Notes: a model not told the origin generated them from the sequence alone. A stretch of 64,000 nt of DNA from Candidatus Thorarchaeota archaeon (GCA_019057475.1 DXJO01000020.1:32001-96000), one strand, 5' to 3'; shown: positions 3 to 45,356, counted from the first letter of the stretch. Numbers and translations are program-made.

Positions 3-608
3 GTGGCACATTCCCGAGAGAGAGTGGTTGTGAGTCCCAACCAAAACGTTACCATCAATAGAAGACTAGCAAGAGTCGGTGATCTGCCGTATGGAGCAGT
101 TGACGAGGAAGGCAAATCAATGATGCCGAGGTTTGGAGATGGCCACAATCTACTTGTCACTGGTTCCACTCACGATGAACATGGCTTCAGGAAGACTGCT
201 GATCCTAGGGTCCATGATGAACTTGTACGCAGATTGGCAATGAAGATTCAGGAGAATCGCGATCTCCTAGCTGATGTTGTTGTTGCCGGCCCCTCAGAAG
301 CTGAATGGGGTGTCGTTTCATTTGGCTGTACTTCCAGGTCAGTTGATGAAGTCATGGCCACTGGCACCAGTGCAAGCTCAATCAGATCTCTAAGACTGCG
401 TACTCTTTGGCCATTCCCGGACAAGGAGATTAAGGAGTTTGCCCATACTGTGGAGCGATTACTCGTGCCGGAGCTCAACTTGGGGCAGTTGGCAGGAGAA
501 GTGTCGCGTGCAGTTGGCGAATCCGTCGGTGTAGTATCTCTTAACAAGATTGGGGGAGGCCTCATGATTGAGCCTGATGAGATAGCTGCTGCGATGGCTT
601 CAGTTTGA
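3..608 (+). CDS. korA: 2-oxoacid:ferredoxin oxidoreductase alpha subunit, C-terminal part (5' truncated by window)
   Basis: TGSTHDEHG, SFGCTSRS, LRTLWPFP, VPELNLGQL motifs of KorA/OorA. Confidence 0.85.
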   Translation: MAHSRERVVVSPNQNVTINRRLARVGDLPYGAVDEEGKSMMPRFGDGHNLLVTGSTHDEHGFRKTADPRVHDELVRRLAMKIQENRDLLADVVVAGPSEAEWGVVSFGCTSRSVDEVMATGTSASSIRSLRLRTLWPFPDKEIKEFAHTVERLLVPELNLGQLAGEVSRAVGESVGVVSLNKIGGGLMIEPDEIAAAMASV

Positions 609-2902
609 ATACCAAACGGTTCTACACTCGATTGGCCGTCCTGTCTGCGTTCGCCCACTGAGATTGTGAGTGTCAGATTCGTTCGCATCCAGATGAGAAT
701 ATCTAGAAACCTGTTCGTAGTTTCGAGCCACGGACTGCTTACTTCGAGTGTGATGTTGTGAACTCCGGGATTGATCCAAAGAGGCAGCGGAATCGAGCCA
801 AGTAGGCTTGGACTTAGATTCATCCATACGAAGAATGGATCTCCACTATTATCAACAAAGACACTGACATTGATTGAACTCGGGATGCTGCCATTGTCAT
901 CATGGACATCTAGACTCATGGCGATGGTTTCTCCATAGAATGCCTCCATAATCACGATATCTGCATCCATGGTCCCATAAACAATCAGTTCGAAATCAAA
1001 TGGCCCTATTGCGATGTATTTTGTATTATTGATGCTTACAGTAATCGTATGCATACCAAGAATCACATTGTGAGCTATTGTAAACGTGAAATTCACGGTC
1101 GTATCAGTTAGGATGATTTCAGTTGTGGAGAGCTGGTGTTCGCTATCTAGAAGAGCTATCCCAATGGTCTGTTGGAAAGCCCATTCGGACTCTATCAAGA
1201 AACTGACAGTTGTAGTTTGACCGCGCACAGCGTCCCATATTGTATGGACAGAAGAGAATGTAAGAGGATAGTATGTCATGAACTCAAGGAGAAGTGTTGT
1301 TTCACAGACATGCTTCGAGGGCTCGTCAAGAATGACTAATGAGTAGTTCGCCAGTCCCACTTGTGTTCCCGGAGTTGTGTACCATTGCAGCAGAATCAGA
1401 CCAATCATGTCGCTCGTACCGGTTGCCAATACATAGCCCGTAGAATTGAAAAGTTCGACAGAGATGCTTCCAACGTCAGCATCCAGTGGGTCCGTCAGAT
1501 GTAGCAATACTGCAGTTTCATAGCCAAGAGCCGAAGGAAACAATATTTCGTGGGTGACCTCTGGGATGAATGAAACAATGAGTGGTTCCTGGTAATGCAT
1601 CTGGACGTAGTGAGTTGTTTCATTTGTTTGAACTGAGATTACTCCCATGCCCCAGCTTGTTTCTGGAATCAGGAAGGAGTGCCTGAAGCAACCGGATTCA
1701 TTAGTCGCCCCTTGGGTTATGATTTCTGTACTGTTTCCGATTGTAAGACTAACAGATAGTGGAATGGCGCTGATTGTAGTGTTGGCCGCCTGGTCTGTCA
1801 CGATAATTTCAATGGTAATTGACTGTCCACATATGGCAGGCTGTGCACTCTCGACATTGACAATCACATCTCGTTGGATGGCAGCAATCAATACAGAAGT
1901 TGTAGCTACTTGATACGAGGGGTTGGTTGCAGTTACATTTACCCGATAAAGTCCAGGATCTACTGCAAAAGCAATTGTGGAACTGTATGTACCGTTTCCT
2001 AGGCTAGTCATGTTTCCGTTTGCGAATTCAGTATTCCATCTAACTATACTATCGTTTATTGGCTCTGAGAGATGATTAAGATGTTTCACACGCAAATCAG
2101 CCAAGTTAACATGGCTCCCGTCGTGTAACTGACAGTGTACTGAGTCAGAATACGAGGTCGCAATCAGGCTAGATTCCGGGGGTTGAACAGTGAGTGTGAG
2201 AGATTCTGAAAGTGGATGAAATGCATCGGTGCCATTACACGAAACAGTGAGATTGTAGTCCCCAGGTGGTCCCAGCGATGAATTCCAGTTCACTGTGACT
2301 TCACCGTTATTGTCTGTCGTGTCGTTCGAGTGCACCACTAATTCGCTATCCGCGTTATAGATATCTATGGAAACTGGACTATTTGAGAGAGTTATGTTGC
2401 TGTTGTGTGCGCTCACAATCCTAAGGCTAAAGCTCTTGTCTGTGCCATAGGGGACAGATAGTGGCTCCAGCGCATATGCTGTTAGTGGACCCCTGGTTAT
2501 GTTAATCCCTATGATTTCACTGGCTCCTTGGGAATAGCCATCGAAGGCTTCGACATTAAAGATGACAAAGCCACTGGTCCCATTGACGCCTGGGAACGTA
2601 TGCTCAGGCTGGATTATGTATGAGGAGAGAAGAATCCTAGTGTCGGGTGATGGCGGTATGAAATAGTCGTCATCAAAGACAGGCCCGAAGTCTGTAACTA
2701 TTGCGAAAGAAACGTAGCACCATCCATCCTCGCTGAAATCAGCAGTGACCTTGGCCACCATGTGAATGGTTTCGCCAACCTCGTATGTTAGCATATCGGT
2801 TTCGAAGTAGTCAAACTCGAAGTAGAAGGCGCTAACTGGCGAAATCAGACCAAAGGCGATGAATACTGCGATTGCAACAATAGCCAGTGCGTTTCGATTC
2901 AA
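248..2902 (-). CDS. Large secreted beta-rich (Ig-like repeat) surface protein
   Basis: N-terminal signal peptide, repeated TDxNGxV / PGxYNLTV beta-sandwich motifs, many NxS/T sequons; last ~120 codons overlap korA antisense. Confidence 0.7.
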   Translation of the reverse strand: MNRNALAIVAIAVFIAFGLISPVSAFYFEFDYFETDMLTYEVGETIHMVAKVTADFSEDGWCYVSFAIVTDFGPVFDDDYFIPPSPDTRILLSSYIIQPEHTFPGVNGTSGFVIFNVEAFDGYSQGASEIIGINITRGPLTAYALEPLSVPYGTDKSFSLRIVSAHNSNITLSNSPVSIDIYNADSELVVHSNDTTDNNGEVTVNWNSSLGPPGDYNLTVSCNGTDAFHPLSESLTLTVQPPESSLIATSYSDSVHCQLHDGSHVNLADLRVKHLNHLSEPINDSIVRWNTEFANGNMTSLGNGTYSSTIAFAVDPGLYRVNVTATNPSYQVATTSVLIAAIQRDVIVNVESAQPAICGQSITIEIIVTDQAANTTISAIPLSVSLTIGNSTEIITQGATNESGCFRHSFLIPETSWGMGVISVQTNETTHYVQMHYQEPLIVSFIPEVTHEILFPSALGYETAVLLHLTDPLDADVGSISVELFNSTGYVLATGTSDMIGLILLQWYTTPGTQVGLANYSLVILDEPSKHVCETTLLLEFMTYYPLTFSSVHTIWDAVRGQTTTVSFLIESEWAFQQTIGIALLDSEHQLSTTEIILTDTTVNFTFTIAHNVILGMHTITVSINNTKYIAIGPFDFELIVYGTMDADIVIMEAFYGETIAMSLDVHDDNGSIPSSINVSVFVDNSGDPFFVWMNLSPSLLGSIPLPLWINPGVHNITLEVSSPWLETTNRFLDILIWMRTNLTLTISVGERRQDGQSSVEPFGIQTEAIAAAISSGSIMRPPPILLRDTTPTDSPTARDTSPANCPKLSSGTSNRSTVWANSLISLSGNGQRVRSLRDLIELALVPVAMTSSTDLEVQPNETTPHSASEGPATTTSARRSRFS

Positions 2903-3023
2903 TCATCACACCAAACGTCAGTCATCATGTTACCTAAAAAACAGCACTTGATATAGCGACAGGTTTAATTCAAGACCGCTCAGCGTCAGTGCGACACTGA
3001 AGGAACACGGAGTGCAGTAAGCG

Positions 3024-3389
3024 ATGGTCATCAGGTTAAGGAATGCTACAATCGATGCGATTGAAGACACAGAAACAAAAAGATTGAAGCTTCTGAGAAT
3101 TATTTCCAAGACTGAAGGAGCCAAATTGACATTGGAACTTCCAGAAGCACTTTGTGACAAAATGAATGTGCGTGATGGCATCGTGGTGATTGTCGATTCC
3201 AAACCAATTGCGAGAGGGGACAAGAGCAAGCTCTATGCAGAGGGCGATATCTTCAAGATTGGAGGGAATGGTGACTTAGAGATGGTGGGAGCGATAGGCG
3301 GTTTGAGGGTCGTCCTTACCCTTGCCAACCCAACGCCAGCGAAGAAGAAAATGTTTGCTGCTGACAAATTCTATTTGATGCTCTCATAA
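3024..3389 (+). CDS. rpo8: RNA polymerase subunit Rpo8/RpoG (Rpb8 homologue)
   Basis: YAEGDIFKI, AIGGLRVVL and DKFYLML match Rpb8 YVMYGKVYRI, SYGGLLMRL and RVYLLM; ~120 aa. Confidence 0.65.
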   Translation: MVIRLRNATIDAIEDTETKRLKLLRIISKTEGAKLTLELPEALCDKMNVRDGIVVIVDSKPIARGDKSKLYAEGDIFKIGGNGDLEMVGAIGGLRVVLTLANPTPAKKKMFAADKFYLMLS

Positions 3390-3591
3390 CAATCTGGTAC
3401 GGTAACAAAATGGGGCTTTCAAATCCCTCGTCAGGAAATTTCTAGCAGGTAGGAGTGACAGCGCTGAATAGTTTCGGTGATCTCTCATTCTGAGGAGGCC
3501 ATCCGTAACTACTCTGCCTCTATGCAAGTCCATTCGAGTAAATGAACAGTTTCTGTGAACGTATTGAACCCTTCTGAAACTCAGTTATGAG

Positions 3592-4650
3592 TTGATGTCC
3601 GATTCGATACGGGTGTGGTCATTGACTGGTAGAATGATTGAATCATCGAGTCTGATGTCTTGGTCTTGTCCTGATTGTCGCGGGCGATTGCTACACAGTC
3701 AAGGATACATAGTATGTTCTGAATGCGGCATTGCAATCTCCAGAAAGTATGTCGATCCCACATATCAGATGGGTGAGCCTAAGCGTGGTGATGCTCCTGA
3801 TGCAACCATGTACGTTTCTCTCGGTAATAGGATGCATATTGTTGATGGGCTTGGCAGTTACATAGGGTTTCACAAGGACTGGTATTTTCGTGATGCAAAC
3901 GGCCATTCACTATCCGCAGCAAGCCAGAAAAGGTTCAAGCGTCTGAAGAGTATATACAGTACTCAAGTGCGAATTGGAACGAGTGAGGCGAAGTATCGTG
4001 CTCTTAGAACACTGAATCATGTGTCAAAGCTATTGATGCTGAATGAACAAGTGCGCGATCGCACTGCATACCTATACAAGAAAGTGGTTTCGGAATCTCC
4101 TAAGGTGACTAACAACATTCTGCTTATGGCAGTATGCCTCTTGATAGCAGTGAGGGAGTTCAAAGATGGTGCACCGATAACACTTGAAGAGATTGCTGAT
4201 GTTTTCGAGAAATGCGGACATAGAGTGAGCGTAAGATCAATTGTCAGAGAAGCACTTAGACTCAAGTCTATGATGGGATATGCTCCTCAGATTCGCAAGC
4301 CAAGGGACTATGTGCCCAGAGTTCTGTCAATGCTAATGAATAATCAGAGAGTCATAGGTAAGGTGAAGCTTCGTGGATGGGACTCGAAGGCCTATGAGAG
4401 TGCCCTTAGAGATAGAATCTTTGAAGTTCTTGAGTCGATTCCTGCGTCGAAACGTGGGGGACGGAATCCATTCATCTTTACCGTATCAGCAGCCTACGCT
4501 GGCGATCAGTTAATTGCCAATGAATATGGTAAACGGACGGTATTGACTCAAAAGCTTGCGTCGATAGCAACACAGGTTGCTGAATACAGTATTCGTGATC
4601 ACTTTGGTATGATGAAGAAGCTCATTCAACCTGTGGAAAAGACAGCCTAG
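3592..4650 (+). CDS. Divergent TFB/TFIIB-family transcription factor (start possibly 3655)
   Basis: CPDC..CSECG Zn ribbon, two cyclin-like repeats, GRNP motif, C-terminal TQKLASIATQVAEYSIR HTH. Confidence 0.8.
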   Translation: MMSDSIRVWSLTGRMIESSSLMSWSCPDCRGRLLHSQGYIVCSECGIAISRKYVDPTYQMGEPKRGDAPDATMYVSLGNRMHIVDGLGSYIGFHKDWYFRDANGHSLSAASQKRFKRLKSIYSTQVRIGTSEAKYRALRTLNHVSKLLMLNEQVRDRTAYLYKKVVSESPKVTNNILLMAVCLLIAVREFKDGAPITLEEIADVFEKCGHRVSVRSIVREALRLKSMMGYAPQIRKPRDYVPRVLSMLMNNQRVIGKVKLRGWDSKAYESALRDRIFEVLESIPASKRGGRNPFIFTVSAAYAGDQLIANEYGKRTVLTQKLASIATQVAEYSIRDHFGMMKKLIQPVEKTA

Positions 4651-4803
4651 AAACGTCAGCGTGAATTCGAACTAACCCTGTTGAGTAGCGTGCTTTCGGC
4701 AGCAAACGGTGATACTAGTGAATGGATTAGTGGCACTGAGTAGGGGCAGATATCATCTCGGCTGGGTGCTTAAATCTCCAACAAAGAAAGTACTATTCGG
4801 CTG

Positions 4804-6513
4804 ATGAGTGGTAGGATGTGTCTTTTGATGACTAGTCGTGATGTACTTGTTGTAGAATGTCCTAATACGCGATGCAGCGGCTGTCGCTACTTTTCGGCCC
4901 CAGTATGTGCTAAACTTGAATCTCTACATGGTACCTCAAATCATCAAGCAAGGGCAATTCTTCTAGAAACTGAAAAGAAGCTTGTCCATCTTGGAGGACA
5001 CAACGTAGTGCTCCCACTGGAACCCCCTTGGCATGCTGAAGGCTGGGAGTCTATCTACATAGGCGAAAATGAATCAGGACTTCAAAATGTCGTTGACGCC
5101 TATGTAGTTGGGCCATATCTAGCTGTGTTCTATCTGCAAGAAAAGCATCAGATTATGTATAGGTCATATCCATTAGTTAGAACATCTCTTGAACTTGCTC
5201 TTTTAGATGAATTGTCTAACAAGACTGGGTATCTTACAAGTAGCCATTCGGATTTTAGAGTTAGTATTTCTGAGAGAGTCAGTGCCGTGTCATCCCAAGT
5301 TTCATCAAGTATCGCCGAATTACTTCCTGAGATAAGTGAATCAACCAAGGGGAGGATTTCAGATGTTGTTGCTCATAGAATGACTGTATTGGGATTGTTC
5401 TTCTCATTGTTGCTGGACGATGAAGTTGAAGAAGTCTTTCTGGACAGGCCAGGAGCAGTGCTATATTTTGATCATCAGAGATTTGGGCGATGTCATTCAA
5501 ATTTCATTTTGACTGACAAGATGGTGTCACGCCTTGTTACACTGATGCGAGCAGAAAGTAATCTACATCTGGACCGAGCGAACCCTTCATTAAAAACAGA
5601 CATGAGAATAGCCGGCACGATTCTTCGTTTTTCTGCATGTGTGCCACCATTAAGTCCAGACGGCCTGCACCTTGAAATTCGAAGAGCCCGATCTAGTCCA
5701 TTCACAATCTTGGATTTGATACATATTGGTACATTGACAGTTAGCGCAGCAGCAACACTACTTGTTGCCATAGCTGGACGTTTCAACATCACTATTACTG
5801 GAGGACCAGGTTCTGGCAAGACTACTTTGTTGAATGCACTGGATATGGTTACGCCAATCACTTGGAGAAAAATCTACATCGAGGATGCTGTTGAGAGCAG
5901 GTTGATTGAAGGGCACCATCAGGTCAGGATAAAAGTCGATCCAGTGGATGAGAGAAGTAGGCAATCTGACAAGAGCATTGAGATAGTGAAGAGCTTGCAT
6001 CGGTCCCCTGATTATCTGATTCTAGGTGAGATTCAGACAGCTGAACACAGCCAGGCGTTGTTTCAAGCGGTGGCAGCAGGACTTCGTACAATTCAGACAT
6101 GTCACAGCGACTCGGCAGCAAGTCTTATGTCTCGTTGGACCATAGGACACCAAGTTGATTCATCTAGCATTGCTTTGATGGACGTCATAGTTACACTTGA
6201 CAGGCCAGTGCCTGGACAGTCTAGACGTCATGTGAGGGAAATTGTTGAAGTAAGAAGAGATATTGACCATCGAGGCGTGGTCTTTGTGGGACTTAACAAG
6301 GTCTTTGATTTGCGAAATCCGGGAGCCGAAGTCGGAAGGTGGGCCAAGGACGGGGCATTCAGACTGCGTGCACAGATTGCCAGTTGTAAGGATTATGTCC
6401 AGGTGTTCGAGAAAGCAACTGAAGGCCTCGAATTCGCGCTTGAGGAAGCTGCTATAGACTCAGTAACCTCATTGGTCGAAGAGTTGTGGTGCGGTGAGCA
6501 CGATATGATTTAG
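4804..6513 (+). CDS. Type II/IV secretion ATPase (CpaF/VirB11/ArlI family)
   Basis: GGPGSGKTT Walker A, IEDAVE Asp box, PDYLILGEI Walker B, TCHS His box. Confidence 0.85.
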   Translation: MSGRMCLLMTSRDVLVVECPNTRCSGCRYFSAPVCAKLESLHGTSNHQARAILLETEKKLVHLGGHNVVLPLEPPWHAEGWESIYIGENESGLQNVVDAYVVGPYLAVFYLQEKHQIMYRSYPLVRTSLELALLDELSNKTGYLTSSHSDFRVSISERVSAVSSQVSSSIAELLPEISESTKGRISDVVAHRMTVLGLFFSLLLDDEVEEVFLDRPGAVLYFDHQRFGRCHSNFILTDKMVSRLVTLMRAESNLHLDRANPSLKTDMRIAGTILRFSACVPPLSPDGLHLEIRRARSSPFTILDLIHIGTLTVSAAATLLVAIAGRFNITITGGPGSGKTTLLNALDMVTPITWRKIYIEDAVESRLIEGHHQVRIKVDPVDERSRQSDKSIEIVKSLHRSPDYLILGEIQTAEHSQALFQAVAAGLRTIQTCHSDSAASLMSRWTIGHQVDSSSIALMDVIVTLDRPVPGQSRRHVREIVEVRRDIDHRGVVFVGLNKVFDLRNPGAEVGRWAKDGAFRLRAQIASCKDYVQVFEKATEGLEFALEEAAIDSVTSLVEELWCGEHDMI

Positions 6514-6601
6514 ATTCATCTAGAGCAGTATAATCTTCAATAGATGCGATTTCTTGAAGGAGTTAAAATAGCACTCAAAGAGGTTAGTAGCTAGGTGTTA
6601 G

Positions 6602-6808
6602 TTGATGGTTGATAATGCTGACCTCCTTCATGATAATCACGCGGGTCCATTAGTAGAAGAGAGCTTGCTACTAGGTATAGCGGTAGTGACTGTTTCTATA
6701 GTAATTGCGGTAATCCTGCAAGCCACTGGTTGGGCTCAAGATGTAGTCACCAACCTTCTTCAGCTTTTGGAGAATAGCTGGAGTGACTTTGCTGGACTGG
6801 TCCCGTAA
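6602..6808 (+). CDS. Small type IV/Flp pilin-like protein
   Basis: Short leader, G|PLVEE (E+5) then hydrophobic helix; follows secretion ATPase; leader is not basic. Confidence 0.5.
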   Translation: MMVDNADLLHDNHAGPLVEESLLLGIAVVTVSIVIAVILQATGWAQDVVTNLLQLLENSWSDFAGLVP

Positions 6809-6971
6809 ATTTCACTTGCCTAACTGCAGCGCGTCCATGGAGCTACTCGCTCTGTTTCAGTCCGCATCAGATACACAGCAAGAATTGTATTTCGGAATGA
6901 AAATGTTTCAGTTCGTGGGAAAGCCTTATTTGTAGTTGGAGAGGTTTCGCGCTTCGGACTCGACTAGGATG

Positions 6972-7049
6972 GCTCCGGTAGTGTAGTCCGGCCCAGCATG
7001 GGGGACTCTCGATCCCCCGACCCGGGTTCGAATCCCGGCCGGAGCACCA
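6972..7049 (+). tRNA. tRNA-Glu(CTC)
   Basis: GCTCCGG/CCGGAGC acceptor, GGGGA-CTCTCGA-TCCCC anticodon arm, TTCGAAT, CCA. Confidence 0.95.
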
Positions 7050-7059
7050 CCAATTTTTC

Positions 7060-9111
7060 TCAAGCTAACATATGTCGACGTCTAATTAATGGAATGCTAA
7101 CTAGGCTAATTGACAAGCAAAAACCGACAGCTAGGCCGATTATTCCGACGCCTTGAGCTGCTGAAACGTCGGCTTCTTCAATCACAATTACGATTGATCC
7201 TGCGTATGACTGAAGGGAATCTGACGCTTCCGATTCGTACGATAGAAGATAGCTACCCGGTGCGGATGGAATCATTAGCTGCAGATTGATGAAACCATCG
7301 TTACTGCTACCTATTTCCATATGAGCTGAGAGCCATACGTAACTTATTGGAATGCTTCTCAGTAATGACCCATTCAACGCTTGAATAGTAAGCTGAACGT
7401 GTATCTCCTTAAGCTGTGGTACTATCTCATAGTACTCGAAAATAATTATGACAGGTATCGTTTTAGCTACAGTGAAACTATATTCCAGGATGACTGAAAG
7501 TTCGTATGCTGACTCATTTCCGCTGCATGTTATTAGGAAAGCAAAGTGGCCTTCACTGGAAGGTGCAATGAAAGCCATGGTCGCGGTGCCGTCCTGATTG
7601 GTCATCGACTGTGCAACGAGAGTATTATCAATCGAGTAGACTTCCACTAGTTTGTTGGAGTAGTTGGTATTGTCGTTGATAAGATGGACTGCAAGTAATA
7701 TCTCCTGTCGGGGGGATGCGAATCCCATAATGTTGCTCTGATTCAGTGACAATGTAGGACGAAACCATACTGCTTCACTGAATCGGTGAGTTCCATTCGT
7801 GATGTATGGTGCCTCATTGACAATTACAACGAATTCCCTATCTCCTCTAGATCCTGTTATAGGTAGAAGAAGCAGAGTTGGGTTGTTGCTACCAGTCATG
7901 GGTTTTGTAACTGCTTCTTCAGTTAGTGTATCGAAAATTGTAATGGATGCATTGGGAATCGGTCGGTTTAGAATGTCGTGCACCATTACTGAAATTTCAA
8001 TTTCAGCCCCAGTGATAATGTACTCTGGCAAGAGTACTTCCATCAGCGCAGGGCTTGTGACAACAAAGTGAATTTGGAGAATTGAAGTGCTGTACCGGTC
8101 AGTTCCCATGTATTCAATTGTCAGTGTGTGATTGTTCAGAGAGATTGCCTCATCGATTTGCAAATCAAGAGTTGCTACGCCCGACCCGTTGGTCGTTATT
8201 GAGGACTGTGTTGTGCCATCAAGCGACACCATCATGAGGAAGCTAGGCAATGTTTCGTCGTTGGCCCAAAGCGTGATGGATAGAGTAATCGAATCATTCA
8301 AAGTAACAGTATCAGATAGAACATTATCGTGTTCAATAAGGGTTGCAATCTGCTCTATTGTCACGGAAAAGGATGACTCTGCGCTTTCTTGAAAAAGCGC
8401 CAAGTTCCCTTCGTAGATAACAGTAACAATATTCACACCCAGCTGTGCCCAAGAAGTGTTGCAGTGCAAAGAGAAACTAACATAGCCGGTGTCATTGGTG
8501 ATGCCAGAGCCAAGTAGTAAGGAATCACTGATTACCATAAGAGGGGCGTCTAAAAGTGGTTCGTTCATGTTGTCAAGCAGGCGGACTATGAGAGATAGAT
8601 CGTCGCCTGGCGCCAAGTCACTGTCCTCGACTTGAATCTCTATTGTTGTTGATGAAACAACTGTAAGTGGCATCCACTGACAAGAAGACGAGAGTGACAA
8701 CGATTGATTGCCACGAAAAGTCGCATTAATCATCATGAAACCCAATGGATGTCCGAACGGGAGGAGCCAATCTATGTGTGCAAAGCCATTTGAATCTGTC
8801 ATGTCGGAACCAAGAAACGAATCGTGGGTCTGGTCAAAGAATTCTATTCTCTGATGGGCAACTGGGTCGCCATAGGTCCCATTTTGCAACAACTGAGCAG
8901 TAATGGTTATGGTTTCCCCTCTGGAAACAACAGCTTCGCCTTCAGCAGAAACGGTAGGCATACTGCATGCGAATAGAAGAGAAATGGTAGCCAGAACAAT
9001 CAGCAAGGGAACTGCACTGTTTCTCAAGATAGACTCCTCCTCAATTTGTGTTTTGATCTCCGTTTGCCTGCGCCTTTCTTGCTCTAACACGAAGCAGCAG
9101 GTCTGAATCAC
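7060..9111 (-). CDS. Membrane-anchored Ig-like repeat surface protein
   Basis: Signal peptide, repeated TDSNGxA motifs, C-terminal TM helix followed by RRRH; true start probably ~9030. Confidence 0.75.
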   Translation of the reverse strand: MIQTCCFVLEQERRRQTEIKTQIEEESILRNSAVPLLIVLATISLLFACSMPTVSAEGEAVVSRGETITITAQLLQNGTYGDPVAHQRIEFFDQTHDSFLGSDMTDSNGFAHIDWLLPFGHPLGFMMINATFRGNQSLSLSSSCQWMPLTVVSSTTIEIQVEDSDLAPGDDLSLIVRLLDNMNEPLLDAPLMVISDSLLLGSGITNDTGYVSFSLHCNTSWAQLGVNIVTVIYEGNLALFQESAESSFSVTIEQIATLIEHDNVLSDTVTLNDSITLSITLWANDETLPSFLMMVSLDGTTQSSITTNGSGVATLDLQIDEAISLNNHTLTIEYMGTDRYSTSILQIHFVVTSPALMEVLLPEYIITGAEIEISVMVHDILNRPIPNASITIFDTLTEEAVTKPMTGSNNPTLLLLPITGSRGDREFVVIVNEAPYITNGTHRFSEAVWFRPTLSLNQSNIMGFASPRQEILLAVHLINDNTNYSNKLVEVYSIDNTLVAQSMTNQDGTATMAFIAPSSEGHFAFLITCSGNESAYELSVILEYSFTVAKTIPVIIIFEYYEIVPQLKEIHVQLTIQALNGSLLRSIPISYVWLSAHMEIGSSNDGFINLQLMIPSAPGSYLLSYESEASDSLQSYAGSIVIVIEEADVSAAQGVGIIGLAVGFCLSISLVSIPLIRRRHMLA

Positions 9112-39694: not shown

Positions 39695-40501
39695 TTGCAT
39701 AGATGCTGTCATTGTCAGGATAGGCTATCTTTGAAGATAACACTCATTGCTCGAGCATACGGTCCATACCGAGGAAGGGTACTAGGTCTGATGAAATCTG
39801 AAATTACTAACATGATTTCAGAACTCGACGCAAAGGTGCAGAAGGCAGCTACTGACAAGAGAGGTCACATCATACTCACTATCACAGGAGAAGACGAGGA
39901 ATTCATTGTTAATGTTCTGGATCGCGAGTACGGTATAGTACCAAGACCAGAGAAGCTTACGATTGGACAAGTTGAAAATGGTTACATTGTGGACCTCGGC
40001 AAAGTGGGGTATGGGCTATACGTGAATGTTGGTGTTTCGAAACCGAGTCGTATGGACGCTTTGCTACCGCTACACAAGATTCGAAATCAGTTTGAGATGC
40101 CGAAGACTCCACTGAGAAAAATCGCCAAAGCCCTTATCCTAGTTGACAATCTCCCTGTTGAAATAGTGTTGACTGGCATTGACATTCCTAATTCCAAGAT
40201 TGAAGCGGAGTTCAGCAAGCAGACTCTTGACAGAATCAAGAGGTGGAGCAAGGACGATCATGAGCGCCTTCTTGTTTTCGGTGTTACAAGAGAGCTACTT
40301 GACAGAGTTCTCTCAAAATCGGGCCACGAAGGGGACATCTACAGAGTTGAGAGAATTGGTCCTTTCGAGTATTCTCTAAGATGCAAACGAAGCACACGTG
40401 CTTCAGGGATAGTCACAGCCATCGGGCCCAAACTAAGGGGCGTTCCAATGCATCTGGTCATTCCGCGCGAAATGGAGGCGATTCGCGATGCCAAGGCTTG
40501 A
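39695..40501 (+). CDS. DUF2110-like conserved archaeal protein
   Basis: GKVGYGLYV motif; usual position after tfe. Confidence 0.7.
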   Translation: MHRCCHCQDRLSLKITLIARAYGPYRGRVLGLMKSEITNMISELDAKVQKAATDKRGHIILTITGEDEEFIVNVLDREYGIVPRPEKLTIGQVENGYIVDLGKVGYGLYVNVGVSKPSRMDALLPLHKIRNQFEMPKTPLRKIAKALILVDNLPVEIVLTGIDIPNSKIEAEFSKQTLDRIKRWSKDDHERLLVFGVTRELLDRVLSKSGHEGDIYRVERIGPFEYSLRCKRSTRASGIVTAIGPKLRGVPMHLVIPREMEAIRDAKA

Positions 40502-41165
40502 TGTCTGGCTCACAGAACAAGGATTGTTCTCATCTCGCCAAGTGGCAAAACGTGCAATACGAGCTGGCGGTGTTACGATCAATGGAAAACTAGCCAAGCC
40601 ATCAACTTGGATATCAGGCAAAGAAGAGGTTTTAATCAATGACCGTGCATCCAATACTCCACAGGGCTATTCCAAACTTATGGCGATAGAATCTGCACTC
40701 GACATTCAGTTTGCTGTCCCTGGTATCTTGGCTCTCGATATCGGCAGTTCAGCTGGTGGATTTCTGACCTATCTGGCAGAGAAGGGCGCCAAAGTTATCG
40801 GTCTCGAATATTCAGAAGATTTTATTATCCAATTGAGCAAAATCTCGGAAACATTTCCAGATGTTTCGGTTCTCATGTGTGATGCATTTGAAGTCGACCC
40901 TATGATTGTCTGCGGCCTAAACGAACTCGATCTTCTACTCGTTGACGTCACAACAAATCCCGATAATACAATCACCTTGACAAAGCGATTTACGCCCTTG
41001 TTGAAGAGGGGCGGCATGATTGTCGTAGCGATGAAAATCAAGCCAACAAGTGAGGAATTGCATGGTCTGCAGGATAAACTGGCTGAGCTCGGTTATAGGG
41101 ACATTCAGAAGGTCGTCCTAGATCAATCTCGGCAAGAAGTACATCTAATCGCTACTCACCAGTAA
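40488..41165 (+). CDS. TlyA-like RNA methyltransferase (S4 + FtsJ)
   Basis: RLDVWL..SR..A S4 domain, LDIGSSAGGF. Confidence 0.85.
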   Translation: MPRLDVWLTEQGLFSSRQVAKRAIRAGGVTINGKLAKPSTWISGKEEVLINDRASNTPQGYSKLMAIESALDIQFAVPGILALDIGSSAGGFLTYLAEKGAKVIGLEYSEDFIIQLSKISETFPDVSVLMCDAFEVDPMIVCGLNELDLLLVDVTTNPDNTITLTKRFTPLLKRGGMIVVAMKIKPTSEELHGLQDKLAELGYRDIQKVVLDQSRQEVHLIATHQ

Positions 41166-41204
41166 GCAACGCTTTTATTCAGCTACCGCTTGGCACGCTT
41201 CGCA

Positions 41205-41271
41205 GGGGCGGTAGTCTAGCCCGGCTATGATGTCTCGCTTACACCGAGAAGATCGCTGGTTCAAATCCGGC
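41205..41271 (+). pseudogene. 3'-truncated tRNA-Val(TAC)
   Basis: 60 nt identical to the next tRNA but different 5' acceptor strand (GGGGCGG) and no 3' strand or CCA. Confidence 0.85.
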
Positions 41272-41333
41272 ATTATGAGTATGCGAAATCTCACACAACG
41301 CTTTTAATCGGTCGTCAAACAAATTGTCGTCTA

Positions 41334-41411
41334 GGGCCGCTAGTCTAGCCCGGCTATGATGTCTCGCTTACACCGAGAAGATCGCTGGTTCAAATCCGGC
41401 GCGGCCCACCA
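41334..41411 (+). tRNA. tRNA-Val(TAC)
   Basis: GGGCCGC/GCGGCCC acceptor, TCTCG-CTTACAC-CGAGA, TTCAAAT, CCA. Confidence 0.95.
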
Positions 41412-41719
41412 TCTGATTTCTTCTCTGGATATATGGCAACAACGACTCTTTTCCTTTTCGTCTTCTCCTAACCAGCAGGTCCGCATAATTATCTCTGTTT
41501 TCCTATAACCATATCAAATGTTCATCTAATAAATATACGAGTCTTACATAACTTCTAGATGCATTCCAGCTAAATTAGACATATATTTGAAATATTAGCT
41601 TAATAACTTTATAACTCAATGTAGGGATTACTGTACGAGTTCATAACCAATTCTGATGACGGAAGTAGGAGTGAGCTCAACTGACCGAACAGGTCAGAAC
41701 TTTATATCTCGAAGGCGAC

Positions 41720-43405
41720 GTGACGATGGTTCATTCCAAGGGTGTGACAATCGCAGTTAAGGTTCCCATTAAGTGGGAATCAATGACCAAGAGAACTAAG
41801 CAGAGGCTTAGACAAATCGTCGGGCGTGACACCCGAGTCATTCGTGCCTTTCTTGGAGTAATTGAACAGCACGAAAATGAATTGTTGATGGGTCGCAGAT
41901 TGGAACGGATTAACGAAAGCAAACTGGATACACTCACGATAACTGCTGTCAAGGTCAAGCCGGGCTATAGTCAACGACTAAGTGTGCCTCATGACTTCAA
42001 GAAGCGCTTTCCAAGGATATCACACAATGAAATCCAGGAATGCAGACAGACCGCGGTGGCGCTTTATGAGAGCTACCTCGGGTTGAGGAGCAAGAGAGGA
42101 CGAAAGGCTTCAAAACCGTGCGCGGTCAACTCGACGAGGAGAATTCCACGCTGGGCTTTCTCTCAGAGATTCAAACTCTTTGAGAAGACAAATGCAACCT
42201 CTCGCTGGTGGCTCAATCTGCGGGATTCCTTTGACTCAATTCCTGAGGGCCGAAGAATTCATGATCGATTGACCGTTCCCCTGAGAATCTCGCCCTTTCA
42301 TCTGAACCAGTTCAAAAGGGGTGAAGTCAAGGCTCTACAGATATTCACTGATGACTCCAAAAAGTGGTGGGTGACCTTTGCTATACGTGTAGATACACCT
42401 GAACATCCTGACGAGTTTCTCCCACGTGCTGTTCTCGGCATCGATTTAGGAATTAAGAAGGCTGCATGTACTACGCTGGTAACTCCCACAAAGGTCAGAG
42501 AAACCCGCTACTTCAAGCAGAAGGATAAACAGGGTGTACTGCAAAAACTTGACCAGAGAATTTCTGACCTTCAGAGCAAGGCAGACACCCGATTCAATAG
42601 AGGTCAGAGCGCCGACATGGTGTTGGTGAAGACACGCGCACTCAAGCATAAACGAGAGAATGTTTCCAGAGAGTACGACCGCATACTCGTGAATCAGCTC
42701 ATGGAATACATCATTGGGCTGTCCAAGAAATACACTCTCTACATAGCCCTAGGTAGATTGAAGGGAATTCGTGGTGGTGCACGTCGAGGCAACTACAAGG
42801 GTCGCAAGTTCCGTGGAATGATTCACAGATGGACCTTTGCTAGAACCACCAACAGCCTCAAGCATCAGCTAGCACAGCTTGGTTGGCAGGTCGAGGGTAA
42901 GAATGCACATTTCAGGATTATTCCAGAGAACTGGACATCCATTATGTGTTGGAAGTGTGGTCGAAAGGGCAACCGTCCAAAGCAGAACCTGTTTGTGTGT
43001 TCGACCTGCGGCAACAAGTGCAATGCTGACAAGAATGGCTCCATTAACATCGCTGGACGACTAATTACGATCACAGAGTCACTTCATTCTGTGAGAGGAC
43101 TAGGTTTCTGGACATGTGCAATTGAAAGAGCACAAAGTTCGGGGCCGAAAGCCCGAAGGAAGACATGTTCTTCTCGAGGGAAGTCCTTACCCCCCAAAAG
43201 AGACAATGCATCTGGTCCAGGGGGGTCCGCGGCTGTTCACCAAGTTCAATCGGACCTTCTCAGCTTCGGCGACGAAACTGGGATGGGTGATAATGACCCC
43301 GCCGTGGAAAACACTGTGGTAAGACTCTCTGCTGCTGGAAGTGATGCTCCGGCAATAGGACAGGAGAAAGAAGCCAGGTCTGTGGGAGGGATTTCATTCC
43401 GATGA
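41720..43405 (+). CDS. tnpB: TnpB-family RNA-guided nuclease with rearranged RuvC and long C-terminal tail
   Basis: GIDLG (RuvC-I), IALG, IPENWTS, CWKC..CSTC Zn finger, NADKNGSINI (RuvC-III); no tnpA nearby. Confidence 0.88.
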   Translation: MTMVHSKGVTIAVKVPIKWESMTKRTKQRLRQIVGRDTRVIRAFLGVIEQHENELLMGRRLERINESKLDTLTITAVKVKPGYSQRLSVPHDFKKRFPRISHNEIQECRQTAVALYESYLGLRSKRGRKASKPCAVNSTRRIPRWAFSQRFKLFEKTNATSRWWLNLRDSFDSIPEGRRIHDRLTVPLRISPFHLNQFKRGEVKALQIFTDDSKKWWVTFAIRVDTPEHPDEFLPRAVLGIDLGIKKAACTTLVTPTKVRETRYFKQKDKQGVLQKLDQRISDLQSKADTRFNRGQSADMVLVKTRALKHKRENVSREYDRILVNQLMEYIIGLSKKYTLYIALGRLKGIRGGARRGNYKGRKFRGMIHRWTFARTTNSLKHQLAQLGWQVEGKNAHFRIIPENWTSIMCWKCGRKGNRPKQNLFVCSTCGNKCNADKNGSINIAGRLITITESLHSVRGLGFWTCAIERAQSSGPKARRKTCSSRGKSLPPKRDNASGPGGSAAVHQVQSDLLSFGDETGMGDNDPAVENTVVRLSAAGSDAPAIGQEKEARSVGGISFR

Positions 43406-43595
43406 AGGCAGACGAAGCTCCGACTAGGCCTTGGGTAGCGCCAAGGCTTGATGGCGACATCGAGTCGGGGAAGGGTGGAACACAGGAGTTTCCGAGGGTT
43501 GAGCTCACTCAACCTATGGGAACGGGTCAGCCGGCCCGCCCTATCATTTTCAGTCACTGCGATATGGGCGGCAGGTTTAGCTGATTGGGTTATGA
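43405..43595 (+). ncRNA. Putative omegaRNA-like structured RNA
   Basis: CTCCGACT/AGTCGGGG enclosing GCCTTGG/CCAAGGC and GATG-GCGA-CATC hairpins; TCAGC..CCGCCC/GGGCGG..GCTGA hairpin. Confidence 0.6.
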
Positions 43596-43787
43596 GTTGA
43601 TTGGAACCACCAAATTAGACCGATTCGTGAAGACATTCGCGGACTCAAGATACTTTGGTTGTCGAGAAGAGCATAATCTGTTTCCTTGGAGATAACAGTG
43701 CATCTGTCATTAATCACCAAAGCATTGAAGAGCCAATTCGCTAGCCCAAAGACTTGCGGTGAGTTCCTGCGGGTTTGACCATAGAAT

Positions 43788-43909
43788 GCGGGAGTAGCCA
43801 AGACTGGTCAAAGGCGGCGGACTTAAGATCGTATGAAGATATGGGGTCATTCGAATAAGATATCCGCTCCCGTAGGGGTCCGTGGGTTCAAGTCCCACCT
43901 CCCGCACCA
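43788..43909 (+). tRNA. tRNA-Leu(TAA) with intron 43828-43861
   Basis: GCGGGAG/CTCCCGC, GCGGA-CTTAAG|A-TCCGC, long variable arm, CCA. Confidence 0.92.
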
Positions 43910-43991
43910 ATCTCTCCAAAAGCAAGCACAAGATAGCTTCTGAGCGAAGATTTATGACTACGCCAATGGCGAAGAGCTGCGGAACTCATAG

Positions 43992-45356
43992 GTGAGGATT
44001 GCATTGACTCTGGACGACTCTGGTTATAGGGGCCTAGTTCTTGAGAAACTATCCGCTGCTGGCGCAAAAGTGGGTGACACAATCACAATCGACCATCAAG
44101 GACGAGAGTATGTAGGCATTCTCATGCCTCGTGCACAGGTTGGACGCGATCCTGACCATGTGGTGATAAAGCTCGTTTCCGGATACAACGTAGGCATTCG
44201 ATTGAATGAGTTGTCTGAAATTCACTCGATTAAATCGGGAAGGAAAAGAAAGCGGCCCGCAGAAAAGACTACATCCAAAGCACAATCCGATCTGCCTACT
44301 GTTTCAATCCTGAGTACTGGGGGTACGATTGCAAGCAAGGTAGACTATCAGACTGGTGCTGTCAATCCTGCATTGTCGGCACAGGATCTCTATGATACAG
44401 TTCCCGAGCTCAAGGATCATGCGAATATTCATGCTCGCATTGTAATGAGCGTTTTTTCAGAGAACATTCAACCTGCCGATTGGACGAAGATTGCTAGAAG
44501 TGTTTCATCTGAAATCAAGAAGAGCGTAGACGGAGTTGTCATTGCGCATGGCACAGATACGCTCGGAATCACTTCTGCTGCGCTTGCATTTGCACTTCAA
44601 GACCTTCCTGTCCCAGTCGTTCTTGTGGGCTCCCAACGGTCATCTGATAGACCGTCTTCTGATGCTGCTATGAACCTGATTAGAGCAACTGATTTCGTCG
44701 GGCACGCGAATGCTGCAGAAATAATGGTGGTAATGCACGGTCAAACAGATGATACATTCGCATATGCACACAGGGGAACTCGAGTGCGTAAATGCCACAC
44801 TAGCAGAAGGGATGCTTTCCAGTCAGTCAACTACAGTCCCTTATTCAAAATAGACGAAACGGGCATAGCTGAGCTGTCTGCTCCTCTTCTGCGACGAAAC
44901 CCCGATCGCAAACTCAAGATGAAGCCTAAGTTTGATGATCGAGTCACTATCGTGAACACTTCTCCAGGAATCAAACCTGATGTGATTGACTCGTACGTCG
45001 ATAGCGGATACAGAGGACTTGTACTGGCCGGAACTGGTCTTGGACATGCTCCTGAACACATTCATTCAGCACTGAAACGAGCCATAGATGCCGGCGTCAT
45101 TGTGGCCATGACAAGCCAATGCATCTGGGGACGCGTCAATATGAACGTATATCGACCAGGCGTGGAGATGCTCGAAATGGGCGTCATACCATGCGAAAAT
45201 ATGCTCACCGAAACTGCGACTGTAAAGCTAATGTGGCTTCTTGCAAACACGAAGACTGTGGAGAAGGCACATGCTGCAATGTCTGAGTGCATCGTTGGCG
45301 AGATAAGCATGCGAACTGAACAGTCCGAGTATCGAATACAGTCGGAGGCCTGTTGA
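43992..45356 (+). CDS. gatD: Glu-tRNA(Gln) amidotransferase subunit D
   Basis: KLVSGYNVG, TGGTIAS, HGTDT, SQRSSDRPSSD. Confidence 0.96.
   Translation: MRIALTLDDSGYRGLVLEKLSAAGAKVGDTITIDHQGREYVGILMPRAQVGRDPDHVVIKLVSGYNVGIRLNELSEIHSIKSGRKRKRPAEKTTSKAQSDLPTVSILSTGGTIASKVDYQTGAVNPALSAQDLYDTVPELKDHANIHARIVMSVFSENIQPADWTKIARSVSSEIKKSVDGVVIAHGTDTLGITSAALAFALQDLPVPVVLVGSQRSSDRPSSDAAMNLIRATDFVGHANAAEIMVVMHGQTDDTFAYAHRGTRVRKCHTSRRDAFQSVNYSPLFKIDETGIAELSAPLLRRNPDRKLKMKPKFDDRVTIVNTSPGIKPDVIDSYVDSGYRGLVLAGTGLGHAPEHIHSALKRAIDAGVIVAMTSQCIWGRVNMNVYRPGVEMLEMGVIPCENMLTETATVKLMWLLANTKTVEKAHAAMSECIVGEISMRTEQSEYRIQSEAC

Follow-up and report, generated by a model that had tools for sequence, protein, structure and literature searches.

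The closest described relatives of the element that concerns us here are the TnpB/omega-RNA (OMEGA) systems of IS200/IS605-type elements, with their guide-directed homing (review, PMC13565253; TnpB census, PMC10691335). Our element interrupts a transfer RNA (tRNA) gene, tRNA-Val(UAC), in a stretch of 64,000 nucleotides (nt) from a Candidatus Thorarchaeota archaeon (GCA_019057475.1, DXJO01000020.1:32001-96000), which we call the window and to which plain coordinates refer. As in OMEGA systems, its protein has a RuvC domain and a zinc finger, its predicted structured RNA overlaps the 3' end of tnpB and stops at the right end of the element, and the guide would be templated by the flank and hence match the uninterrupted insertion site. 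Unlike in those systems, there is no Y1 TnpA in the genome, the partner protein of the family has 1400-1800 amino acids (aa) and belongs to no known family, the RuvC-II glutamate is replaced, and this particular copy lacks its left end and its partner. Moreover, the site is an essential tRNA gene, for which a whole replacement gene is supplied. In the literature we found no account of a tRNA gene being split by a TnpB element that brings a spare with it.

A second point of comparison is provided by the Asgard 'aCas1'-associated TnpB loci, Cas1H-Asgard-1 and Cas1H-Asgard-2 (Altae-Tran et al. 2023, PMC10691335). These share with our locus an Asgard (Thorarchaeota) host, a large partner gene that stands head-to-head with tnpB (only about 22 codons of it are left in the window), and a hypervariable stretch after the conserved region downstream of tnpB; a motif like GTTCACTCA is found in many of the scaffolds described below. 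However, the partner here is not detectable as a Cas1 homologue in Pfam or in a PDB profile search, and the hypervariable stretch is the end of a tRNA gene, whereas the main text of PMC10691335 contains no mention of tRNA.

The layout functionally parallels three further kinds of system, although it meets the defining features of none of them. Integrase-mediated elements of archaea and bacteria sit in a tRNA gene, keep a working tRNA, and leave a displaced tRNA piece at their far end. All three features recur here, but there is no integrase, the junctions repeat 5 nt (CCGGC) instead of an att-type sequence, a whole tRNA gene with its promoter is supplied rather than a matching 3' end, and the displaced piece would feed a guide RNA. 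In IStrons, which combine a group I intron with an IS605/IS607 element carrying TnpB (PMC4227781), a TnpB-bearing element likewise makes its own insertion into a host gene harmless; there this is achieved by RNA splicing and here by a spare gene, and an Rfam scan of 40500-44500 returned tRNAs only, with no group I intron. Finally, synthetic Cleave-and-Rescue (ClvR) constructs combine three linked components: the RNA-guided nuclease, its guide, which targets an essential gene, and a variant of this gene with mismatches to the guide (PMC6442612). The same three linked parts occur in the window, where the spare tRNA gene is mismatched to the guide, but the analogy is a functional one only: ClvR is engineered, works in diploid animals and uses a deliberately recoded rescue, whereas here the spare is a natural allele, the element lies inside its target, and any drive is conjectural.

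Our preferred reading, to which we assign a probability of roughly 0.6, is that an element of a giant-protein/TnpB family sits in tRNA-Val(UAC), brings its own spare tRNA, and has a guide aimed at the uninterrupted GGGGCGG alleles of the gene, so that it would practise homing with rescue. Judged from its sequence, the locus would work like a TnpB/omega-RNA element with guide-directed homing.

The split tRNA-Val gene and its relatives

Two sequences of tRNA-Val(UAC) follow one another on the plus strand. Copy 1 (41205..41271) is the 5' part of the resident gene in its GGGGCGG allele: the heptamer occupies 41205-41211, and the sequence breaks off at 41271 after CCGGC, the 3' strand of the T-stem (about tRNA position 65). 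Rfam recognises only positions 8-63 of its tRNA model in this copy (35.2 bits), and ARAGORN calls no tRNA at it. Copy 2 (41334..41411) is complete and intron-less, with a fully paired GGGCCGC/GCGGCCC acceptor stem and an encoded CCA; it is called by ARAGORN, scores 57.5 bits in Rfam, and proved in a genome-wide check to be the only tRNA-Val(UAC) of the 96%-complete assembly. The two copies share 60 identical nt (41212-41271 = 41341-41400), and the element CAACGCTTTTA stands ahead of each.

The piece that copy 1 lacks is found beyond tnpB (43531..43550, plus strand). There, 43531-43546 reads CCGGC-CCGCCCT-A-TCA and is followed by TTTT at 43547-43550; that is, we find the T-stem strand, the 3' strand of the acceptor stem, the discriminator base, TCA, and a run of T. 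When copy 1 is joined to 43536 onward, a full tRNA-Val(UAC) cloverleaf results, whose acceptor stem has six Watson-Crick pairs and a G1.U72 pair. The 11-mer CCGGCCCGCCC occurs once on the two strands of the 3.34-Mb genome, at this very spot; about one occurrence per genome is expected from composition, and it is the placement exactly at the right end of the element that rules out chance. These results agree with the original prediction, which had noticed the two copies with their 60 shared nt and similar upstream sequence, the truncation of copy 1 after CCGGC, the different but fully paired acceptor stem of copy 2, and the resemblance of 43531 onward to the missing 3' end.

In order to establish what the uninterrupted locus looks like, we compared the tlyA / tRNA-Val / tRNA-Leu region in six congeners (G001-G006) and in a metagenome contig, L082. 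Four of the congeners have empty sites (G001, G002, G003 and G004). Those of G001 and G002 read GGGGCGG ... CCGGCCCGCCCCACCA, and that of G003 carries the GGGGCGG allele ... CCGGCTCGCCCC; in all three the 3' end is CCGGC(C/T)CGCCCCACCA, with tRNA-Leu directly after it. The fourth, G004, reads GGGCCGC ... GCGGCCC with a normal trailer, and GGGCCGC is found in other genera as well. These relatives without tnpB bear out the proposed insertion into the resident gene between 41271 and 43531. The further proposal that the insert carries a recoded tRNA holds in part: a complete tRNA-Val is indeed carried, but it is not recoded, since GGGCCGC is a natural allele, present at the empty site of G004 and in other genera. 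The GGGCCGC empty site has the normal 3' flank.

L082 comes from an independent metagenome assembly, is 95% identical, and shows the same two-copy arrangement with an identical junction, CCGGC followed directly by ATTATGAG. The original prediction had raised the prospect of a misassembled duplication. A 56-contig metagenome-assembled genome with a repeat as short as 60 nt might well suffer a mis-join that leaves a partial duplicate, but the same junctions recur in L082 with 5% divergence and an intron difference, and a related structure is present in G006. The duplication is therefore not a misassembly, and we give an artefact practically no credence.

The intron difference is informative about which copy is which. 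The tRNA-Val of all six congeners contains an intron of about 33 nt 3' of the anticodon stem. In L082 this genus-type intron is kept in copy 1 and missing from copy 2, from which it follows that copy 1 is the resident gene and copy 2 was imported with the insert. In the host genome, copy 1 is without the intron too, and the comparison of relatives with and without the insertion, L082 above all, indicates that copy 1 was later converted by copy 2 across the 60 nt and thereby lost its intron. The position of the intron in the congeners and L082 (L012-L017 and L082) is non-canonical (CCGAGAA, intron, GGTCGCTGG), and neither host copy has one; in other genera of the family both the presence of the intron and the acceptor allele vary.

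G006 carries an orthologous tnpB insertion, 91% identical over 2.7 kb, but a single tRNA, which combines the chromosomal promoter, a G003-type intron and the GGGCCGC/GCGGCCC stem. Its right end abuts CCGGCTCGCCCT, which is the allele of G003, its nearest empty-site relative. By flanking genes G006 is the most distant of the congeners, and the closer relatives G001, G004 and G005 are without the element. A chimeric tRNA-Val(UAC) stands in G005 (L012; G005:C58, about 555-690, minus strand), with 5' GGGGCGG against 3' GCGGCCC and two G.G mismatches; it has a G004-type intron, a trailer that begins like that of the element (ACCATCT), an unrelated 56-nt spacer before tRNA-Leu, and no tnpB. This chimera may be the scar of a lost element or a recombinant between alleles. 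Taken together, the relatives give a rare series of states, from empty sites with both alleles, through a fresh-looking insertion that retains the intron, to the gene-converted form of the host, with G006 as a resolved single-tRNA form and G005 as a chimeric tRNA that may be a scar.

The chromosomal flanks are as follows. A tlyA-like methyltransferase gene (40488-41165) lies upstream of both tRNA-Val sequences, and directly 3' of its stop codon (41163-41165) stands the resident promoter element CAACGCTTTTA (41167..41177, plus strand), whose motif and position are common to the six congeners and other genera. On the right, tRNA-Leu(UAA) with its intron (43788..43906, plus strand; 46.8 bits in Rfam) is the normal downstream neighbour and recurs in every congener. 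About 155 nt (43551..43705, plus strand) that are missing from the empty sites of G001-G004 separate the old tRNA trailer from the region upstream of tRNA-Leu; they contain the right-end-like GATTGGGTTAT, are shared with G006, and have no second copy in the genome. L082 (2381-2756) has about 375 nt more, inserted directly after GATTGGG. Both stretches may have been left behind by previous insertions here.

The omega-RNA, its guide position and TnpB

The right-end module (43075..43530, plus strand) overlaps the 3' end of tnpB, ends in ...GGGAACGGGTCAG, and would encode the scaffold of the omega-RNA; it is kept in mini-copies that lack tnpB. Besides three more full-length paralogs of tnpB, the host genome has the last ~450 nt in at least seven further copies that lack tnpB, and a motif scan returned 39 further loci, all but one in Thorarchaeota. 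In every locus the conserved block ends in ...GAAAYRGGTTAT (here in ...GGGAACGGGTCAG, at 43530), and the sequence beyond is different in every copy. Comparison of more than 60 right ends shows that homology stops after GGGTTAT or GGGTCAG and gives way to hypervariable sequence; in G102, 29 of 29 paralogs lose homology at the same point. Compensatory changes affect 22 of the 36 pairs of the predicted scaffold fold. This anatomy is what one expects of a TnpB omega-RNA whose guide is templated by the flank.

Since the scaffold ends at 43530, the displaced tRNA-Val 3' end occupies the guide position from the first guide base, just as had been proposed. The omega-RNA would thus run into the old 3' end and stop near the T-run at 43547-43550, giving a guide of 16-20 nt. 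Downstream of homologous RNAs at other loci CCGGCCCGCCC is absent. A local hairpin that had been thought to compete for the same sequence does not survive scrutiny: it is not significant (z = -1.1, -1.4 and +0.4) and is not kept in G006.

Compared with the uninterrupted GGGGCGG allele of G001 and G002, the guide shows only C-to-T at positions 12 and 14, both potential rU.dG wobbles. Against copy 2 there are two wobble positions and, at guide positions 6 and 9 (tRNA positions 66 and 69), C/G mismatches. It is in this region of the guide that characterised TnpBs, such as that of ISDra2, need pairing. Apart from the guide itself, the genome has no exact match to the first 12 guide nt. The three orthologs (host, G006 and L082) have nearly the same scaffold, and their 16-nt guides vary at a single position.

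The tnpB gene itself (41720..43405, plus strand) is intact and encodes 561 aa. The protein matches Pfam PF07282 (Cas12f1-like_TNB) with E = 1.3e-10 and PF01385 weakly, and it matches TnpB and Cas12f chains of the PDB (E = 2e-9 to 1e-5) over residues 209-449. It has the RuvC-I aspartate (D242), a RuvC-III motif NADKN (D437) and a zinc finger, and the RuvC-II glutamate position is occupied by glycine (IALGRL). In an alignment of six sequences, D242, E403 and D437 are invariant, among paralogs that are 46-95% identical. A RuvC-II change accompanied by an alternative conserved glutamate has been argued to leave the protein active (RIIr clades; PMC10691335), and E403 may substitute for the missing residue in this way.

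The replaced glutamate, in a gene that is immobile yet conserved, invites the explanation that TnpB has been domesticated: having ceased to cut, it would act as a regulator, bound by way of its RNA guide to the tRNA-Val region. The three acidic residues, however, are invariant even among mobile paralogs present in many copies (at least 30 in G102), and the host genome contains no matching target to regulate. We regard a domesticated binder as very improbable.

The insert and its family

The left edge of the inserted DNA (41272..41333, plus strand) consists of 21-24 nt that include GAAATCTC (41285-41292), a second promoter element CAACGCTTTTA (41296-41306), and the leader of copy 2. It is absent from the empty sites and from G006, and present in L082 with 95% identity. 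Neither a search for this 62-nt piece among 40 relatives and in 86 family genomes nor a metagenome scan for a donor of the copy 2 leader gave a match.

Downstream, the 3' end of copy 2 abuts the stump of another gene. The interval 41413..41484 (minus strand) holds the first ~22 codons (41413-41481) of a giant gene whose remainder is deleted; its translation is DLLVRRRRKGKESLLPYIQRRNQ (MDSLVRRRGKRKESLL... in G006) and can be aligned to the partner protein on G005:C91 at its N-terminus, VDSMLGKRGRPRRPL...; the remnant in L082 includes a stop codon. Homology to G005:C91, that is, to the region upstream of tnpB in a paralog, begins at 41484 and runs rightward. It covers the divergent intergenic region common to full-length paralogs (41485..41719, plus strand; alignment of four full-length copies), in which we find CTTAATAACTTTATAAC (about 41598-41615), the hairpin CTGACCGAACAGGTCAG, and a TTTATAT box. 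The idea that the 180 nt between copy 2 and tnpB are a mere spacer was rejected, as they hold the N-terminus of the partner gene and the upstream region of the paralogs. A full-length match to the 229-nt spacer was found, among 86 family genomes, in none beyond the host genome and G006.

We likewise rejected the description of the element as a simple tnpB transposon in favour of a left-truncated member of the giant-protein/TnpB family. When the genome was searched with a profile of the left end typical of the family (GGAGCGATGGAATTC...), five copies came up, none of them near tRNA-Val. Because the partner gene is deleted and the left end is gone, the element can no longer transpose; on its sequence, what we see here is a left-truncated, immobile remnant. 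Among open reading frames (ORFs) of more than 100 aa in 41272-43530, tnpB alone has family support, and there is no integrase. The 96%-complete genome gives no match to Y1 TnpA (PF01797), although controls score, and serine recombinases were not searched for; Cas1 (PF01867) is absent from the genome as well. A target-site duplication was considered as a family trait and discarded, given that a 7-nt redundancy (TATGGAA) is seen in one mini-element, 5 nt (CCGGC) here, and none elsewhere. The DNA may have entered, for instance, through a cut in the resident gene of which one side was mended by homology and the opposite side by end joining.

Some sequences upstream of tnpB have counterparts at the right end. 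There, in the terminal hairpin of the omega-RNA, GTTGAGCTCACTC (43499-43511) is the perfect reverse complement of GAGTGAGCTCAAC (41669-41681), and the right-end terminus GAACGGGTCAG is found again as GAACAGGTCAG at about 41689-41699. A relation of the same type, with sequence variants of its own, is seen in the C42 paralog. This complementarity could represent an inverted-repeat end or RNA-RNA pairing.

Full-length members elsewhere show what has been lost. Their partner genes, divergent from tnpB in a head-to-head arrangement, encode 1806 aa (C42), 1422 aa (G102:C174) and 1641 aa (G055:C123). The best parallel is L139 (G055:C123), which comprises an intron-bearing tRNA-Tyr, the convergent 1641-aa gene, a 556-aa tnpB, and the right end; directly after the right end follow 16 nt identical to the T-arm of its tRNA-Tyr, and in the remnant the base preceding this match differs from the cargo copy at guide position 3. 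The complete layout of the family would accordingly appear to be a cargo tRNA, a giant partner gene on the opposite strand, tnpB, and an omega-RNA right end. This tRNA-Tyr-like remnant of L139 (1376-1396, minus strand) breaks off right after TTCAAAT, the same T-loop position as the tRNA-Val break, and the shared break point suggests repeated insertions at T-loops.

The layout also bears on whether the locus is an ordinary recombination product or an island of the tRNA-targeting integrase type, with tnpB as a passenger and the tRNA pieces as att-like repeats free of any RNA guidance. Genes for tRNAs are classic integration sites, a foreign tRNA has arrived together with a promoter of its own and, upstream, 21-24 nt of unrelated DNA, and the left junction has no transposon end. 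Against these points must be set the lack of an integrase, or of any ORF besides tnpB, in the insert; the junctions, which share only CCGGC and no att core; the right junction, which is the family right end to the base; and the recurrence with tRNA-Tyr of the series tRNA, giant gene, tnpB and tRNA remnant. An island of this kind seems to us improbable, if a shade less so than a domesticated binder.

Several further members of the family deserve mention. Right ends stand close to tRNA genes in other genera too (L133 in G082:C174; L128, L132, L135 and L136 in genus g5), the distances being about 70 nt where a tRNA-Leu follows and about 120 nt where a tRNA with a TAATCCTTTTAAC promoter does; this suggests that the family is associated with tRNA loci in general. 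At L043/L118 (G102:C174, about 680-699, minus strand) the sequence AGTCTAGTCTGGAT, which opens the guide position, matches a tRNA D-arm over 15 nt; the 8.6 kb around L043 contain no replacement tRNA or second fragment, and the case is ambiguous. The host contig C42 (28633-36252; L081, about 1234-8853) carries a 7.6-kb element with the family left and right ends and the 1806-aa ORF divergent from a 558-aa tnpB. Its site in congener G001 is reduced to a scar of about 45 nt, and this supposed empty site was set aside as a deletion scar rather than a clean site; searches for empty sites of the C18 and C9 copies yielded nothing usable.

The partner proteins share GRADLV...(V/L)E(L/V)K, which resembles a PD-(D/E)xK nuclease motif. 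Nothing in Pfam or the PDB matches the 1806-aa ORF. When three partners were compared with Pfam, Cas1 did not appear even at E <= 1, and a profile built from the three matches no PDB chain. Mini-elements of about 650 nt, made up of the left end and the omega-RNA right end without tnpB, number at least seven in the host genome (G000), where they lie on contigs C18, C21, C34, C37, C2 and C38; others occur in G001-G006 and in G102, which has at least 30 family copies. They often stand at contig ends and so break up these assemblies.

Proposed homing with rescue and its weight

We can now set out how the element would operate under our preferred reading. A family element would have entered the resident tRNA-Val(UAC) at the border of T-loop and T-stem. 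The inserted DNA (41272-43530) carries its own promoter and a complete intron-less GGGCCGC tRNA-Val, now the cell's only tRNA-Val(UAC); the giant gene has since been deleted to its ~22 codons, while tnpB and the omega-RNA scaffold have stayed intact. The TnpB-RNA complex would then be programmed against uninterrupted genes of the GGGGCGG type, and copy 2 would be spared by its true mismatches at guide positions 6 and 9. If an uninterrupted allele were cut, be it in a second copy of the chromosome or in DNA entering the cell, the carrier locus would serve as the repair template, or else cells without the spare would die. Either outcome would maintain and spread the cassette, in a manner resembling homing with a built-in rescue gene.

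Selection on tnpB is relevant here. The gene is intact in all three orthologs, and its ratio of nonsynonymous to synonymous substitution rates (dN/dS) is 0.13-0.19 at dS 0.12-0.2, values that indicate purifying selection after the element was immobilised. Between the host and G006, flanking genes differ by dS 0.35-0.39, tnpB by dS 0.13, and the partner remnant by about 20%. The patchy distribution and the low divergence of tnpB relative to its flanks are consistent with spread of the element, although they are suggestive only.

A number of observations weigh against homing with rescue. The left junction, CCGGC followed by ATTATGAG, lacks a recognisable left end, and no transposase candidate is left. 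The guide has C-to-T changes (positions 12 and 14; position 6 in G006) of the kind that a decaying relic would show. The protein lacks the canonical RuvC-II glutamate. In G004 and in other genera the GGGCCGC allele occurs with no element present, and its link to the element may be incidental. Constrained synonymous sites, instead of a recent transfer, could be the reason for the low dS of tnpB, and the neutral-looking remnant is intermediate. Finally, a target-adjacent motif (TAM) is not derivable, the left flanks of 12 relatives sharing only a loose G[GA]N[AT]T[CT]NN. The TTCAAAT of the T-loop is a candidate, but the register of the motif relative to TTCAAAT/CCGGC is ambiguous, no motif is consistent, and the one clean pair of empty and filled sites has a junction ambiguity of 7 nt.

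The strongest competitor is that the locus is a historical relic. That is, the insertion and the spare would be real but the guide unused, the old 3' end being decaying flank, and tnpB would persist only because the insertion is young or because its protein serves the many other omega-RNA copies of the genome. Besides the changes in the guide, the loss of the partner gene and left end fits such a history, as does the absence of a target allele from the host genome, and the seven or more tnpB-less scaffold copies could use TnpB in trans. Yet those mini-copies have a closer full-length tnpB, on C42, and their scaffolds are only about 75% identical to that at tRNA-Val. Selection on tnpB has been sustained in three lineages after immobilisation, all changes in the guide are compatible with wobble pairing, with a single difference in 16 nt among the three orthologs, and the element is found in distant and not in close relatives. 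We therefore judge a relic to be unlikely, if still well ahead of an island or a binder.

A bolder version of the homing reading, which we offer only tentatively and hold a little more probable than a relic but well short of even odds, is that this is a natural 'home-and-rescue' element. It would spread in Thorarchaeota by cutting uninterrupted alleles, work on after the loss of its transposase, drive turnover between the GGGGCGG and GGGCCGC alleles, and leave chimeric tRNAs such as that of G005.

The locus offers a concrete triplet of guide, target and decoy for a TnpB clade with a rearranged active site, and selection on tnpB in the absence of its partner gene and left end bears on the role of TnpB apart from transposition. 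Provided that the proposed targeting is real, even an essential single-copy gene is open to TnpB elements that bring a spare unmatched by their own guide, and the logic of engineered cleave-and-rescue gene drives would exist naturally in Asgard archaea.

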